From Candidatus Bathyarchaeota archaeon (GTDB lineage Archaea > Thermoproteota > Bathyarchaeia > TCS64): 64,000 nucleotides of DNA. The notes under the pieces were generated by a model. That model was given only the letters and a program-made list of their open reading frames with translations, did not search any database and was not told the DNA's origin. This document shows, in pieces, positions 1 through 63,310 of the stretch. The translations under genes and the position numbers were made by a program. Where the stretch lies: assembly GCA_963769425.1 (NCBI GenBank), contig CAVYLP010000006.1, positions 320,001 to 384,000 on the forward strand, given 5' to 3'. How positions within the stretch are numbered: position 1 is the stretch's first letter; every line of letters begins with the position of its first letter.

Positions 1-2295
1 GCTTGTCCTTTGCGCCTCCGAGGTACTGTTTGCACTCTGCCTTGTAGATGCGGTAGAAGCTGCTGTGGCCGAGACCACGCTCGACGGCTGCGCGGTTGAA
101 TATGATGGCGTCTTCCATGTTGTAGCCGCTGCTGCTGAGGACGGCGACTATGTAGTTCTGGCCGCTTGGGCGCTTGTCGAAGCCTATGATGTCCATGGGC
201 TTCGTGCCGACGACGGGCTTCTGCGGGTAGTGGAGTAGGTGGCCGCGTGTGTCTGTGCGGTCGCGGTAGTTGAGGACGTAGAGGCCTGGAGCCTGCTTCG
301 CCATGGCTGCCTGGTATGTGTTACGGGGTGACTGGTTGTGCTCTGGGTAGGGGTGATGCTGGCGACTACGCCTAGGATGGCGAAGGGGCAGATCTCGAGG
401 TGTGTGTGGTCGGTTGAGATGTTGTTGGGGTCGATGGCGACGTATGCGTTCTCCTCCTCCTCGGCGTCGAGGAACTCGATGATACCCTCGCGGACGAGGT
501 CGCCCCACTGCCACTTGCCCTCGCGGAGCTGGCGGGCGTGGCGCTGCTTGAGGAGGCTCTTGCCCTCGCTGACGACGATGAGTGGGCGCCTTATGCGTCC
601 CTCGTCGCAGTTGACGTAGATCTCGTTGTAGGTCTTGTAGTAGCAGGTGTTGACTTCACCACTTATTTCGCTACGGCGCCTCATCTCGCGGAGCTTTTGT
701 ACGAGCTCCTCGGGGGTGGTTGTGTAGCCTAGGAGGTAGCCTTCGACGAATATCTTTGCGCCCTCGTGGCGGAGGGTCTCGTCGGCGTCCTTGGCCTTGA
801 CGACGCCCATGAATTCGAGTGTGCGCTTTATTTTCTCTGCGTCTGTGCCGGTGCTGATGCTGGCGGTTAGGCTTAGGTTCTTGACTAGGCCACAGTTTGC
901 GCCTTCGGGGGTTTCGTTCGGGCATAGCCTGCCCCAGTGTGTGCTGTGTAGGTCTCGGGCCTCGAAGTTTGGCTGGCTCCTGCTTAGTGGGCTCTGTAGC
1001 CTGCGTAGGTGGCTGAGGGTGCTGATGGTGTTTGTGCGGTCTAGTAGCTGTGTCATGCCGACTCGTCCCCTGCGCCAGTTTCCGGTGGCGAGGGCGTGCT
1101 GGATTCGGCTGGTGATTATGCCTGGCCTGACGGCTGCGCTGATGAGGACTCCCTTGCGGCGGGTGCTCATCCTGCGGAACTGGTAGCGCATGTCACGGTA
1201 TAGGCTCCAGAAGGCGCTTCGGAATAGCTCGGCGAGGAGGGGCCCTGCGAGCTTGATGCGCTTGTTCTTGAGGTGGTCTTTGTCGTCCTCCTTCCTGTCC
1301 TGGAGTTTTAGCTCGATAATACGTGCGCACATCTCTCCGAGGAAGATGGCCTTGTCCTTGCGCTGGTCTGCGCCGCGGCCTATGTGGGGGAGGAGGTTGC
1401 GGTCGAGAATGGCCTCGGCGCGCTTCATTCGGAACTCTTTGACTTGACCGAAGGCTACTCGGTTACCGATGTAGAGGACCGCGTCCTCGCGGTTGTGGAT
1501 GTTACCGGCTTCTCGGAAGCTGGGTTCGAGTTCGCTTAGTATTCTAGCGTCTAGGCTGACCATGTCGGCGACTTGTTTGTCGGTCTCTACGCCTAGTGCT
1601 CTCATGAGGGCGACGTATGGGACGGGTACGGGTACGCCGGGGATGGTAACGCTCATCTCGCCCTTGGCCTTGAGGTTAGCCTCGATTCGGGCGCGGAAGC
1701 CCACCGTGGTTGAGAAGACTTTTCCGCGGTAGACTGGGTTGCTTCCGCGGTCGTCTATCTCCACGAGGACACGGTTGGGGGCGAGGTCCTCGAGGCTGAC
1801 TATTACGCGCTCGGATCCGTTGATTATGAAGTATCCTCCGACCTCCTCGGGGTCTTCTCCGAGTGCCATGAGTTCGTCGGGGGTGTGGCGGCTGAGAAGG
1901 CAGAGCTTTGACTTTACCATTATGGGGAGGTCGCCTATGTTGACCTTCTCGTAGGTCTCCTTGCCCTCGTCTTCGAGCATTATCTCGAGGTAGAGGGGGG
2001 CGGCGTAGGTGAGGTTTCGTATCCTCGCCTCGCGTGGGTAGACGGGGCGTTGGGTCCCGTCGACCTCGGTTATGACGGGGTCTCCGACTTCTATCGATCC
2101 GAACTTTATCTCGTATGTGTGGTTCGGCACCTCTATGGTGATGCCGCCTATCTCGTCTATAATCTGCTGCAGCGTGTGCTCGACAAACTCGTTGTAGCTG
2201 TCGAGGTGCTGCTTCACGAGGCCTTCGTCGGCGAAGAAGGTCTTCATGAGTTCCCAGTTGTTTTCCTCTGCGAGAAGCATTTCATCAATCCTCAA
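1..2295 (-). CDS. rpoB: DNA-directed RNA polymerase subunit B (single-chain RpoB); runs off window start; apparent 1-bp deletion near 350
   Basis: Motifs GGYFIINGSERV, ARDLHSTHWGRLCPNETPEGANCGLVKNL and EFLDAEEEEN. After ASITP the shifted frame reads YPEHNQSPRNTYQAAMAKQ and continues to position 1. Likely start is ATG at 2280. Confidence 0.97.
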
Positions 2296-2309
2296 ACGGG
2301 GGTGTTTGG

Positions 2310-2411
2310 CTGCAGGTGTGGTGGCTTCCCGTTATGTTTCTATAGATAATCGAACGGAATCCCTCCTCTCCCTCGGTGTTCATCTCTTAGAAGCCACTAC
2401 CCTGCAGAGGC
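2310..2411 (-). promoter_or_regulatory. Structured 5' leader upstream of rpoB (long closing helix plus internal hairpin)
   Basis: Inverted repeat 2310-2328 / 2390-2407 (CUGCAGGGUAGUGGCUUC pairs with GAAGCCACCACACCUGCAG), plus inner CCGUU/AACGG stem. Confidence 0.55.
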
Positions 2412-2434
2412 TACTATGCATGCCGAGCACTCAC

Positions 2435-2449
2435 TAATAAATGTTTTTG
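2435..2449 (-). promoter_or_regulatory. Probable BRE/TATA box for rpoB
   Basis: Minus strand reads CAAAAACA-TTTATTA, about 25 nt upstream of the start of the leader helix. Confidence 0.5.
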
Positions 2450-2554
2450 AATGTTGATTAGAGGTGTATTAGGGGTGTTTGATTATACCAAATGTTTAAT
2501 AGGGGAACTCGGTTATTCGATTAGAGCCCGACGGGGAAAATAGGAGATAGATAC

Positions 2555-3243: not shown

Positions 3244-3353
3244 GCGGGGGTACCCGAGACTGGCCAAAGGGGCGGGACTTAAGATCAGGCAGTCTCTGGT
3301 GAGAGATCCCGTAGCTCAGGCTTTCGTGGGTTCAAGTCCCACCCCCCGCACCA
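3244..3353 (+). tRNA. tRNA-Leu(UAA) with a 22-nt canonical 37/38 intron (3284-3305), CCA encoded
   Basis: GCGGGGG...CCCCCGC-A-CCA acceptor; anticodon TAA at 3280-3282; long variable arm; bulge-helix-bulge with CUUA/UGAG central helix, two AGA bulges and UCAG/CUGG outer helix. Confidence 0.95.
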
Positions 3354-3366
3354 ACCCTGAACCTCC

Positions 3367-3417
3367 TCATATTCGCTTCTTGAAGACCATTGGGCCATCA
3401 GGAGTGTTGCAGACGAA
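3367..3417 (-). pseudogene. Probable remnant of a tyrosine integrase C-terminal tail facing the tRNA 3' end
   Basis: Minus strand FVCNTPDGPMVFKKRI*, resembling from memory the ...YVCTTPDG.MLFRKRK ends of Bathyarchaeia integrases; stop lies 14 bp from the tRNA CCA; no upstream ORF. Confidence 0.4.
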
Positions 3418-3515
3418 GATATTTTTCCTCGGCTGAAGCTACTCCTCAGTCCATACGAAAACGCGTATTTTCGCGTCGGAAACGAGCTCCCTGTACGTGT
3501 GGCAGGTACATCCTG

Positions 3516-3745
3516 TTCCTAGTAGCTGGAACTCAATTCCTAGTAGCTGGTACATCGTATTCCTTGTAGCTGGAACTCAATTCCTAGCAGCGGGAACACC
3601 AATTCCTTGTAGCTGGTACATCGTATTCCTTGTAGCTGGAACTCAATTCCTAGTAGCAGCGACTTAATTCCATGTAGCTAGGAATCGGGTTCCTAGTAGC
3701 ATGGTATAACGTTTTTCGCCACACGGATTCCTAGCAGCGGGTACA
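3516..3745. repeat. Phased repeat array 1: nine TTCC(T)(A/T)GTAGC boxes plus one distal copy
   Basis: Boxes start at 3516, 3537, 3560, 3581, 3603, 3626, 3647, 3668 and 3690 (21-23 bp period), with a further copy at 3728. Confidence 0.95.
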
Positions 3746-3809
3746 TGGGATCCATAATCTCGTCACCGATTCCCTATCCAGTCCCTACTGTAGAGGTATG
3801 GGGGCTGTG

Positions 3810-4040
3810 TTCCTAGTAGCGGTGTCACTGTTCCTAGAGCGGCGTCTGGGTGTTCCTAGCTACGGCGTCACTGTTCCGCGTAGCGGTGTCCCGCTGTTCC
3901 TAGCAGCGGGGTCGCATGTTCCTAGTGGCGGTGTCTCAGTTCCTTGTAGCGGTGTCTGTGTTCCTAGTAGCATGGAGTCGGGTTCCTAGTAGGATGGGAT
4001 AACGATTTTTTGCAGGCATTGTACCATGCAGCAGGTACTC
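3810..4040. repeat. Phased repeat array 2: nine TTCCTAGTAGC-like boxes plus one degenerate distal copy
   Basis: Boxes start at 3810, 3831, 3853, 3874, 3897, 3919, 3940, 3961 and 3983 (21-23 bp period), with a degenerate copy near 4022. Confidence 0.95.
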
Positions 4041-4204
4041 AATATTCACCAATACTTCGGGTTTGAGCATGGTTATCCATGGTTAGCTGATTTATGACTC
4101 TCCATAATAGGAGACCGCATTCATCCAGTAACAATGAGATCCTCACCCTGCCACAAGGTACAAGTCACTTCGCAGCAATAACCCAATTAAAATACTCCCT
4201 CTAA

Positions 4205-5638
4205 TTGGCAGCCCAAATTAAAGGGTGGAAAGATATATGCCAAGCCCTTCCCCGGAGGAAACCCAGCTTGACCGAGATCGTTCTAGTCTACCCCTACGTT
4301 GACCCGCCCAGAAATAGGTCCATTTTCAGGTTCCCGCCTCTCGGCCTAGGTTATATTGCCGCCCACCTCCGAGACAACGGCCACGATGTGGCGATAGTGG
4401 ACGCCACCTTCACCGGGGAGGGGGCTTCAATAGAGAAGGTAAAGGCTCTCAACCCTAGAGTGGTTGGCATCTACTCTATGTTCACAATGCGTGAGGCATC
4501 TCTACGCTTCGCGCGCGCCCTCAGGGGGAACTGTGACCTTCTCATTGCTGGGGGTCCCTTACCCACTGTTGAGCCCGAGGCTTACCTCAATGACTTCGAC
4601 GCTGCAGCAGTCGGCGAGGGGGAGCAGACAATGCTTGAGATCGCGCAGGGCCGGAGACTTGGCGAGGTCAATGGCCTTGTATATCGTGAGAAGGATGGTA
4701 AGCAAATCAGGCCTGGCGAGGATGGTGGCGAGGTCGTCCATACATCGCCCCGCGAGGTCCTTAAGAACCTCGACTCCATCCCACTTCCCGCCCGTGACCT
4801 ATTCGACAATGCCAACTACATCAACTACTACAAGAAGCGCAGGGAGCCCGCCACAACAAGCGCCATAACAAGCCGAGGATGCCCCTTCGCCTGCGATTTC
4901 TGCAGCCACCCTATCTTTGGGGAGAGCTTCCGCGAACGCAGCCCTCAGAATATGGCTGACGAGGTCGAACAGATACTCGACCTAGGCTACGGGCGCATCT
5001 TCTTCCAGGACGACTGCTTCACCCTAACCCGTGGAAGAGTCGCGAGGTTCTGTGACGAGGTCGAGCGACGAGGTCTCCACTTTGGCTGGGAATGCCTAAG
5101 CCGAGTCGACAGCATGGACGAGGCAACAGCCGCAAGGATGCGCGCCGCCGGTTGTGACCACGTTTTCTTCGGGCTTGAATCTGGCAGCGACAGGGTCCTC
5201 AAGATCATGAACAAGAGCGCCACCCCCGAGATGGGCCGACGAGCCGTCGAAGCCGCGAGGGCCGGCGGCCTCAAAACGGGGGCATTCTTCATTTTTGGGT
5301 ACCCTGGCGACGATACCGAGTCCATGCTCGAAACCCTACACTTTGCCAACAGCCTTCCCCTCGACTACCTCAGCTTCACATACCCCTACCCCATCCCTGG
5401 AACACCACTCTACGAGCGCGTCAAAGACAAGATGATGGAGGGCAACCCCGAGCCACAACAGAAGGGACTCGTCCAACACCAACTCATCTACTACAGCGAA
5501 ATATCCGAGAAGAAGCTAAAGTTCGGTATAATCAAGGGCCTAACAATCCACTACCTGAAACTCCATGGAGGCCCCGTGGCCCCTCTCATCATCAAACCTC
5601 TTAATACGATAAGCGACAGCGTGTTCAGGCTCCTCTAG
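4205..5638 (+). CDS. Cobalamin-binding radical SAM enzyme (class B methylase-like); likely start TTG 4268
   Basis: N-terminal B12 domain FPPLGLGYIAA; SRGCPFACDFC (CX3CX2C); FGLESGS. Confidence 0.92.
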   Translation: MAAQIKGWKDICQALPRRKPSLTEIVLVYPYVDPPRNRSIFRFPPLGLGYIAAHLRDNGHDVAIVDATFTGEGASIEKVKALNPRVVGIYSMFTMREASLRFARALRGNCDLLIAGGPLPTVEPEAYLNDFDAAAVGEGEQTMLEIAQGRRLGEVNGLVYREKDGKQIRPGEDGGEVVHTSPREVLKNLDSIPLPARDLFDNANYINYYKKRREPATTSAITSRGCPFACDFCSHPIFGESFRERSPQNMADEVEQILDLGYGRIFFQDDCFTLTRGRVARFCDEVERRGLHFGWECLSRVDSMDEATAARMRAAGCDHVFFGLESGSDRVLKIMNKSATPEMGRRAVEAARAGGLKTGAFFIFGYPGDDTESMLETLHFANSLPLDYLSFTYPYPIPGTPLYERVKDKMMEGNPEPQQKGLVQHQLIYYSEISEKKLKFGIIKGLTIHYLKLHGGPVAPLIIKPLNTISDSVFRLL

Positions 5639-8910: not shown

Positions 8911-9756
8911 ATGGTGAGGGACGAGGCTGAGGGAATGGAATCCGTGACAGTAGACCTTCGCCACGGCCTCGCTATAAGGGCGTACCCGGATAGGAGACCG
9001 GGGAACCTTGAGATAGCCGGGATACAGAAGGGCCTCATCCTCCTTAACGGAGGCGTTGAGCTCGTCGAGGAGGGGGCGGGCTTCGGGTTGCCCATCGCCA
9101 TATTCAGGGACAAGACGCTCTTCCCCGGATCAGCGACCTTGAGAGTCATCCAATATGAGCCCTACCCCATTATCGAGAAGACTTACGAGATGGACACTGT
9201 GTCGGTGAAGGTTCTAGGGGGGTCGAGGATTAGCGATGCCATCTACCACCCCGCTCACAGGGTCTTCAGCGCCTTGTACCTGACTCTAGGGAGCCTGAGA
9301 CTCGTTCTAAACAAGGTTATAGAGCTCAGAGACACGGCGGGGGTCAAGACGAGCTTCCAGGCGACCGAACCGAGGGGAAGGGTAAAGGTACGCTACGCGA
9401 TCCACTGTGACCTTATCGAGGTCGAGGCGAAATCGGAGATGACTGCGGGATGCGATGAGCTGATCATGCTCAACGAGCAGGGCGCGTCAACCTTCAGGGT
9501 TTGTAGGGATGGGGACTCGACTCTAATCGACGACGACATCGGCGCCTGGCGGACTATGGATAGCCCGGAAGCGACGCTCTCATCACGAGATGAGTGGCTC
9601 TCGTTTACCGTTGAAAAGCCTAAGGGTATAATATTCAGGAGAGGGCGGGAGAGCGTGAGGGGAAAGCTCAGCTGGGCCGGTTTCAGCCTCTCCTTCGCGC
9701 CAATCACCCAATACGATACACCATCAGGGTCAAGAGCCGAGAGCCTCACTGCATAG
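8911..9756 (+). CDS. Hypothetical protein
   Basis: Long ORF with normal codon usage, divergent from the GT pair; start re-assigned to ATG 8911. Confidence 0.7.
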   Translation: MVRDEAEGMESVTVDLRHGLAIRAYPDRRPGNLEIAGIQKGLILLNGGVELVEEGAGFGLPIAIFRDKTLFPGSATLRVIQYEPYPIIEKTYEMDTVSVKVLGGSRISDAIYHPAHRVFSALYLTLGSLRLVLNKVIELRDTAGVKTSFQATEPRGRVKVRYAIHCDLIEVEAKSEMTAGCDELIMLNEQGASTFRVCRDGDSTLIDDDIGAWRTMDSPEATLSSRDEWLSFTVEKPKGIIFRRGRESVRGKLSWAGFSLSFAPITQYDTPSGSRAESLTA

Positions 9757-63180: not shown

Positions 63181-63310
63181 CCCCGCTCGGCTGACAAAGC
63201 TTATACCAACCAGATAGAAACCCTATGAAAGGCGATGAGGCTCGCCTTCAACCGCGTCCACCTTGGACGCTGATGGCTTCTACAAGAATAACTCAAAAAA
63301 GATGAGAAAA

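Follow-up and report, generated by a model that had tools for sequence, protein, structure and literature searches.

A tRNA-Leu(UAA) gene in the genome of a Candidatus Bathyarchaeota archaeon (GenBank assembly GCA_963769425.1) is followed by two arrays of nine short boxes each, of the TTCCTAGTAGC type. We analysed these arrays within a window of 64,000 nucleotides (contig CAVYLP010000006.1, positions 320,001 to 384,000, forward strand), whose own numbering, starting at its first letter, is used for the locus below; positions elsewhere in the genome refer to its six contigs (C1 to C6), and related genomes carry G numbers. A preliminary description of the window, made from the letters alone, had viewed the arrays as a site at which a protein encoded elsewhere would load cooperatively for replication, partition or chromosome organisation. 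Neighbouring genes encode RNA polymerase subunit B and a radical-SAM enzyme that binds B12. The locus itself comprises the following features:

3244–3353 (+): tRNA-Leu(UAA) with a 22-nt intron (ARAGORN, introns allowed; Rfam tRNA match at 3244–3350, 42 bits)
3354–3447 (−): dead 5′ stub of a small helical-protein gene family (translation and alignment with other copies)
3448–3515: leader from the stub to the first box, with a TCCCT...GGTA element (sequence; homologous leaders at other loci)
3516–3700 (+): array 1, type A, nine boxes joined by TGGAAC or TGGTAC linkers, the final pair forming a palindrome
3701–3727: conserved terminus with a T tract, found after every array
3728–3738 (+): tenth box of unit 1, 38 bp past the ninth (box search)
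3739–3809: inter-unit spacer, homologous to the spacers of other twin loci
3810–3993 (+): array 2, type B, nine boxes (two degenerate) with GGTGTC linkers
3994–4031: unit 2 terminus, comprising a T tract and one degenerate box at ~4021 (sequence)
4032–4219: remaining inserted DNA, which probably ends in what is left of the right attachment repeat (~4209–4219; deduced by eye from comparison with genome G008)

The boxes of array 1 start at 3516, 3537, 3560, 3581, 3603, 3626, 3647, 3668 and 3690, with the tenth at 3728; those of array 2 start at 3810, 3831, 3854, 3874, 3897, 3919, 3940, 3961 and 3983. Spacing between boxes is 21–23 bp in both, the spans from first to last start are 174 bp (array 1) and 173 bp (array 2), and the second array follows the first at an offset of 294 bp. 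Each ends in a common terminus and T tract, with one more box beyond. Tandem Repeats Finder reported both arrays with a period of 21 (8.5 and 8.6 copies; scores 174 and 158), so that program and sequence agree with the layout given in the preliminary description, as do the Rfam and ARAGORN calls with its placing of a tRNA-Leu beside the arrays. The same program also returned longer, higher-order periods, one of 44 bp and one of 66 bp; in array 1, the latter reaches 92% matches and a score of 247. Allowing at most two mismatches, we counted 25 box matches across the window (shuffle mean 12.5, standard deviation 3.7; none of 100 shuffles gave 25 or more), and 17 of the 25 lie on the plus strand between 3516 and 3993.

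Two details of the earlier picture hold in part. Both arrays have nine boxes, but only seven of those in array 2 fall within two mismatches; the boxes at 3831 and 3854 are degenerate, and so is the ‘tenth box’ of this array (~4021), with four mismatches. Similarly, the boxes had been placed on one face of the helix, which is true only approximately: B-DNA makes one turn per 10.5 bp, and a mean step of ~21.7 bp exceeds two turns by ~0.7 bp, amounting to a drift of about half a turn across eight steps. The dyad that the preliminary description saw in array 1 is missing from type B arrays.

The arrays of the window are members of a family dispersed over the whole genome. A strict box-pair pattern found 15 matches in this genome and 0 for a reversed control; 16 clusters of at least three boxes merged to 13 loci, on all six contigs, and a looser pattern added one further locus (C6:494.9k), bringing the number to 14. 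Within 13 regions, ~153 boxes were counted. The 106 neighbour steps of 19–25 bp average 21.72 bp (standard deviation 1.07), with 21 bp the most frequent step (58 cases), followed by 22 bp (18), 23 bp (16), 24 bp (10) and 20 bp (4). All loci have the terminus in common, and at most of them a further box follows 38–40 bp on. By their linkers, the arrays fall into subfamilies—type A (TGGAAC/TGGTAC), type B (GGTGTC) and two more types—and the A-then-B twin of the window recurs at C3:227216–227688, at C6:762625–763138 and on metagenome contig L035. Array 1 together with adjoining DNA shares 83–85% identity with C4:9426–9742 and C6:260229–260546.

Comparison of these copies undermines an argument for selection, according to which the boxes had been kept while the linkers diverged. 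In eight pairwise alignments of paralogous arrays, boxes were identical at 937 of 1023 positions (0.916) and linkers at 698 of 778 (0.897); moreover, next to the last three boxes the linkers depend on position, and these position-specific forms recur at several loci. Because linkers are conserved like boxes, we take the arrays to have been copied whole. The box count of nine and the phase are then inherited features, and provide no evidence of selection on each array.

Outside this genome, true relatives of the arrays are rare. The strict box pair was found in 0 of 40 relatives, congeners hold at most two boxes, and multi-box arrays are confined to this genome and a single metagenome contig: nine box-pair loci were found on metagenome contigs, among which L035 alone is a true relative. 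Collections of phage and plasmid records gave no array match. Recurrence, by which the proposed platform was to be judged, is therefore seen at 14 loci of the genome itself, but beyond it only on one metagenome contig, and the situation that the preliminary description had named as damaging to its own proposal, a motif restricted to one lineage with copy number varying between relatives, largely obtains.

Several other matches to the box patterns were set aside. In public genome collections, five loci matched the box pair, all of them bacterial and all unrelated ~20–23 bp tandem repeats that contain the 11-mer; we treat them as chance matches, since the pattern itself selects for periods of ~20–23 bp. 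Scans of viral contigs gave one locus with the strict pattern and four with a looser three-box pattern (the same one and three new ones). Three of these are repeats with a 12-nt period and the fourth, L082, alternates steps of 21 and 12 nt; all look coding-like by eye.

As separate observations, unrelated bacterial arrays of 22-bp units carry the same 11-mer on metagenome contigs L032, L033 and L034 and in a bacterial metagenome-assembled genome (MAG; L024). In one metagenome, an identical nine-unit bacterial array is present on two contigs whose left flanks differ and whose right flank is the same, as at the end of a mobile element, and another unrelated bacterial array lies ~290 bp after genes that by eye resemble istA/istB of IS21.

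The dispersed arrays are linked to a gene family. At eight loci, including the window, the beginning of a small protein (..RKYVFTEIERRRL..) is encoded on the complementary strand, directly past the first box of the array, and these stubs break off at varying points. The stub in the window reads as far as R-K-N-I-F, where a 29-nt insertion and then a stop follow, and it meets the 3′ end of the tRNA. Four intact paralogs of 79–130 amino acids (aa) are encoded elsewhere in the genome. The statement that the cognate protein of the arrays is not encoded here thus finds no support: a dead gene stub adjoins array 1 on the minus strand, and the genome retains intact copies. An SSV-type split integrase was considered as the identity of the stubs and rejected, given the length of the intact proteins and the lack of an integrase signature.

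Among 1.84 billion proteins searched, the family comprises 165 representative clusters (E ≤ 1e-3). It occurs in 14 of 41 related genomes, the present one included; multiple copies are common there, as are internal stops. Searches of the ESM Atlas and of 5.8 billion proteins with the small protein, and with an 85-aa protein encoded next to it in relatives, yielded unnamed hypothetical proteins only; a PDB sequence search with the 85-aa protein gave no match, and no relatives of the small protein were confirmed in viral contigs.

Boxes are also found, singly or in pairs, in front of small-gene copies. In this genome, inverted box pairs stand 15–20 nt before the start of three copies: an intact paralog (C4:352129; gene at C4:351851–352123), a copy broken by stops (C3:378753) and a further copy (C6:958018). 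A looser pattern identified four box pairs in the congener G002, each directly past an AT-rich element, two of which lie ~35 nt before a small-gene copy. By eye, a single box-like word follows a TATA-like word in G006, on G002:C49 and at C4:319026 of the present genome. In congeners, the boxes thus occupy the stretch between an AT-rich element and the start codon. At 30 small-gene loci of relatives, no tandem array with a period of 19–25 bp was present within ~1.5 kb of the gene.

This arrangement offers a reading of the conserved terminus. On the minus strand, the terminus at 3701–3727 is A-rich and TATA-like, and by-eye comparison shows its homology with the AT-rich element that precedes small-gene copies in congeners (G002, G006). 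Because the boxes of congeners lie past such elements and before the genes, the array terminus would be the homolog of a probable core promoter, a role that we infer from sequence comparison. A sigma-70 scan, whose model does not apply to archaea, gave no match.

Two further features were seen near intact paralogs. A tandem array with a 10-bp unit (8.6 copies, score 102; positions 998–1083 of L050, C3:85757–89014) lies ~0.5 kb from the 3′ end of the intact C3:87k paralog. About 0.5 kb upstream of the intact paralog with the inverted box pair, and on the opposite strand to it, a gene at 2168–2536 (+) of L014 (C4:350500–353500) encodes a 122-aa protein that appears winged-helix-like by eye.

In relatives, the small gene belongs to a cassette with the order ABC-type ATPase, GNAT-like protein, small protein, 85-aa helical protein and terminase large subunit (TerL). 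The last assignment rests on a match to phrog_2 (E 6e-37) and to Pfam Terminase_6N and Terminase_6C. Among 30 small-gene loci, many of them cut short by a contig end, six have small protein, 85-aa protein and TerL together, and in seven the small gene is preceded by the ABC and GNAT-like genes. The present genome has one intact copy of the small protein/85-aa protein/TerL set (C2:93277–95193, with TerL at 93277–94770 and the small gene at 94957–95193) and a broken TerL at C6:24–25k, and a TerL pseudogene fragment adjoins the twin array at C3:227k. Further examples of the cassette are found at 8995–12438 of L066 (G028:C2:22000–41900) and at 4156–6476 of L099 (G002:C49). Known from two Bathyarchaeia families, the five-gene cassette matched no PADLOC or NCBIfam system, and we found no description of such a cassette or of such arrays in the literature; the accessible parts of a paper on Bathyarchaeia viruses report tailed viruses with terminases and not this five-gene cassette.

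The position of the window copy is probably explained by the tRNA gene. Inserted material begins exactly at the 3′ end of tRNA-Leu, forming an attL-like left junction. A DNA search of 17 congeners revealed inserts at the same tRNA-Leu in G002 (~18.6 kb; L097, G002:C34), G016 (~8.1 kb; L096, G016:C20) and G006 (~0.66 kb; L095, G006:C131). Their right edge is a repeat of the last 26 nt of the tRNA, exact in G016 and G006 and with one mismatch in G002, and a tyrosine integrase gene adjoins tRNA-Leu in both G002 and G016. In G008, the counterpart of the radical-SAM gene region is preceded, at a distance of ~45 bp, by a 29-nt fragment of the tRNA-Leu 3′ end. In this genus, tRNA-Leu(UAA) is a hotspot for integration. 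At the window locus, ~0.85 kb (3354 to ~4208) separates the tRNA from the homologous point. Given the inserts with tRNA-end repeats in congeners, we regard the arrays as a remnant of inserted DNA. The locus shares with islands placed at tRNAs by tyrosine integrases its start at the tRNA 3′ end, and the integrase-bearing inserts of G002 and G016 are complete in ending with a tRNA repeat; it differs from them in being a repeat-rich remnant whose right repeat is almost gone (down to ~11 nt, by eye) and which has no integrase.

Some neighbouring observations concern tRNA ends and inserts. By eye, the G006 insert carries what resembles a toxin–antitoxin pair of the RelE/ParE type. At C2:143210–143290, the gene stub beside the C2:143k array meets a tRNA-like 3′ end, with a T-arm-like word and CCA, at which ARAGORN calls no tRNA; this end may be a relic attachment site. 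If introns are permitted, ARAGORN reports a ‘tRNA-Stop (tta)’ at C3:267170 that would contain a 7-nt intron; this may be a miscalled long-arm tRNA.

With moderate confidence, we interpret the arrays as a lineage-specific, amplified control region from a virus-derived terminase cassette, left as a relic at a tRNA insertion hotspot. The window would then hold two tandem 294-bp units of a lineage-specific dispersed repeat family, each unit combining an AT-rich promoter-like element with an iterated 11-bp box (core TTCC-NN-G-TAGC) in a register of 21–24 bp. The unit would stem from the control region just upstream of the small two-helix gene of the cassette, where congeners have one or two boxes. 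There, the box may originally have been bound by a cassette-encoded protein, either the small protein or a partner, beside the promoter of the small protein and TerL; it could have served as an operator by that promoter, as a cosB- or pac-like DNA-recognition site of the terminase complex, or in both roles. Its position is the one that recognition sites of phage terminases have, as in the pac region of SPP1 (PMC4737164).

In the present genome, one or two boxes would have grown to nine or ten, most likely by unequal recombination, a mechanism we propose because of the 44- and 66-bp higher-order periods, and the unit as a whole would also have been duplicated in tandem. The amplified region, often with the 5′ stub of the small gene, would have been copied to ~14 places, and the linked genes would have decayed. 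The window copy would be the ~0.85-kb remnant that sits exactly at the 3′ end of tRNA-Leu(UAA). As the gene linked to the window arrays is dead, these are most probably relics, or at most a sink for a protein produced elsewhere. Judged by their sequence, the window arrays are best read as relic operator or terminase-recognition boxes for a putative binding protein; the protein-binding idea of the preliminary description therefore stays the best reading, but its roles in replication, partition or chromosome organisation find no support.

Several observations weigh against this interpretation. In the three contexts examined (C2 of the present genome, G028 and G002:C49), the genes after TerL are of ordinary cellular or defence type, with neither portal nor capsid genes among them, which makes a role in packaging uncertain. 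The small protein matches no family in Pfam, PHROG, NCBIfam or PADLOC, no solved structure and no viral model; its best small-terminase match, Terminase_7, stays below threshold (E 0.043, two of 80 members). A structural model built from 80 sequences (pLDDT, the predicted local distance difference test score, 84) consists of a short and a long helix and has no recognisable helix-turn-helix, and fold searches with it (PDB Foldseek, VIA wide, BFVD) returned nothing above the noise expected of helical proteins. The only intact small gene of the genome that still precedes TerL, at C2:95193, has no canonical boxes upstream. Four array loci lack a gene stub, and the conservation of TTCC and G within the boxes is partly due to how the boxes were chosen. 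Nor does a mobilising gene recur beside the arrays; the look at co-occurring genes that the preliminary description had suggested showed no recurrent gene family besides cassette remnants at the 14 loci. Finally, the MAGs of relatives are fragmented, and assembly may have dropped arrays from them.

What this account offers in place of the attractive origin or centromere is more ordinary: relic amplified control DNA of a selfish cassette. Its ingredients are of a known kind, namely iterated boxes for a protein, minisatellite-like amplification and remnants at tRNA sites. The box sequence, the small-protein family and the terminase cassette without capsid genes had no counterpart among the family and system models of the libraries tried, nor did we find a paper that describes them. 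Box and small protein make up a defined candidate pair of site and binder, in a phylum without genetics, and the arrays would exemplify how an operator-like site of one or two boxes can grow to nine or ten and then spread through a genome.

An alternative to relic control DNA is that the arrays are live recognition sites for the terminase of the cassette or of a tailed virus, with the chromosomal arrays acting in trans as places of packaging entry or cleavage, or as decoys. The boxes stand directly upstream of the gene preceding TerL, as do recognition sites in tailed phages: in phage SPP1, direct repeats of the pac region extend over promoters and the beginning of the gene for the small terminase (PMC4737164). 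Box pairs, direct or inverted, precede gene copies, and one intact TerL and several intact small-protein paralogs persist in the genome. However, the small protein lacks a small-terminase family match at threshold, TerL has no capsid or portal genes beside it in the contexts named above, the arrays are found in no viral contig, phage record or plasmid record, and the gene copies linked to them are dead. We consider live sites of this kind unlikely. A more specific version strikes us as quite improbable, in which an orphan, capsid-less terminase cassette has a recognition subunit that reads the TTCC-NN-G-TAGC box and the ~14 arrays are live as entry points or decoys. If it were true, a terminase machine, of a virus or of a particle resembling a gene-transfer agent and made elsewhere, would package or cut host DNA at the arrays, or the arrays would soak up a viral recognition protein.

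The two phage systems closest to such a site, the pac region of the Bacillus phages SPP1 and SF6 and cosB of phage lambda, delimit the resemblance. With pac, which is read by the small terminase, the boxes share sets of direct repeats at the promoter or start of the gene upstream of TerL (PMC4737164). There are 9–10 boxes per unit here, as opposed to two to three sets in pac; the linked protein bears no small-terminase signature and the cassette no capsid genes in the contexts examined; and the arrays occupy many sites of a cellular chromosome, next to stubs of dead genes. In lambda, gpNu1 binds the R3, R2 and R1 elements of cosB. Both cosB and the boxes consist of repeated, partly inverted elements directly upstream of a small-subunit gene or its counterpart, whereas the present repeats are far more numerous, neither a cosN-like nick site nor an IHF site was identified, and their role is a predicted one.

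The ~300-bp unit could also be a non-autonomous element resembling a miniature inverted-repeat transposable element (MITE) or a satellite, with boxes that bind a transposase or integrase supplied in trans. Near-identical copies do occur at unrelated loci, those at C6:900k and C6:762k agreeing at 93% in boxes and 97% in linkers; the four loci without a stub share a short, weakly conserved left border (by eye); the window copy and the one at C2:143k adjoin tRNA or tRNA-like 3′ ends; and tRNA-Leu is a hotspot of integration. Yet by-eye inspection of the array borders showed neither terminal inverted repeats nor target duplications, no transposase-like neighbour recurs, the single tyrosine integrase of the genome lies far from all arrays, and the varying breakpoints of the stubs fit decay after copying better than precise transposition. 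A mobile unit thus seems to us an improbable explanation. Minisatellites with higher-order structure resemble the arrays in their periods (44 and 66 bp here), in lineage-specific amplification and in the copying of whole arrays; the difference is that the unit repeated here is a box that also stands, single or paired, before a defined gene family in another species.

Transcription of the array, as a long 5′ leader starting at the AT-rich element or as part of a tRNA-linked transcript with its end at the T tract, would allow the motif to act at the RNA level, as a protein sponge or a regulatory structure. The boxes of congeners do lie between a promoter-like element and a start codon, each array is followed by a T tract on the box strand, and the predicted folds of the two strands are slightly more stable than those of shuffled sequences (z −3.1 and −2.3). 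This extra stability comes mostly from the terminal palindrome, however, no Rfam family matches at the arrays, and type B arrays have no dyad; we find an RNA element highly unlikely. In Logan contigs of four public runs (X1, DNA; X18–X20, RNA), the tRNA is covered and parts of the arrays are represented only by short DNA contigs of X1. Some of the contigs from X1, a public sediment metagenome run, are array-like pieces that join boxes of both arrays, around window positions 3550–3983; these joints could reflect variants in array length or repeat collapse in short-read assembly.

The proposal of a loading platform draws on likenesses to origins and centromeres. Like iteron-type origins, the arrays are direct repeats of the 17–22 bp class in helical phase; in plasmids such as R6K, RK2 and P1, iterons are phased at ~21–22 bp, and P1 incA has nine of them, a similar number. 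Iteron origins, on the other hand, come in one or a few copies per replicon, at a switch of skew. Here, 14 copies are present per genome, and the extremes of cumulative GC skew, to which the preliminary description had looked for support, lie at ~50 kb and ~720 kb of the contig and not at 323 kb. No Rep, Orc1 or Cdc6 gene adjoins the repeats, Rep families not having been searched by name, and the link is to a terminase cassette. The only Cdc6_C match of the genome, at C1:24396, is on another contig than the arrays of the window. An origin of the origin recognition box (ORB) or mini-ORB kind, with inverted ORBs flanking an AT-rich element by orc1/cdc6, is likewise at odds with the locus: the boxes are direct repeats, with no orc1/cdc6 nearby. 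As for centromeres, parC of plasmid R1 has ParR-binding repeats around the par promoter. It resembles the present boxes in being an iteration of short elements at the promoter of an operon for a small DNA-binding protein, an autoregulatory arrangement that is predicted here, and differs from them in that no actin- or ParA-type ATPase is linked to the arrays, which are dispersed in many copies. Partition genes are absent from the window locus and do not recur at the 14 loci, partition families not having been searched genome-wide.

A role of the arrays as origin, centromere or organiser is not supported: although phased direct repeats adjoin a T tract, their spacing is regular throughout the family and an organiser resembling condensin or ParB might in principle use dispersed sites, the 14 loci vary in composition and are tied to dead gene stubs, the single Cdc6_C match and the skew point elsewhere, replication and partition genes are neither next to the window locus nor recurrent at others, and the strict pattern is missing from the 40 relatives, so that a chromosomal loading platform appears very improbable.

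At the far end of the window, unconnected with the arrays in position, lies a fluoride riboswitch at 63222–63289 (+) (Rfam RF01734, 51.9 bits).

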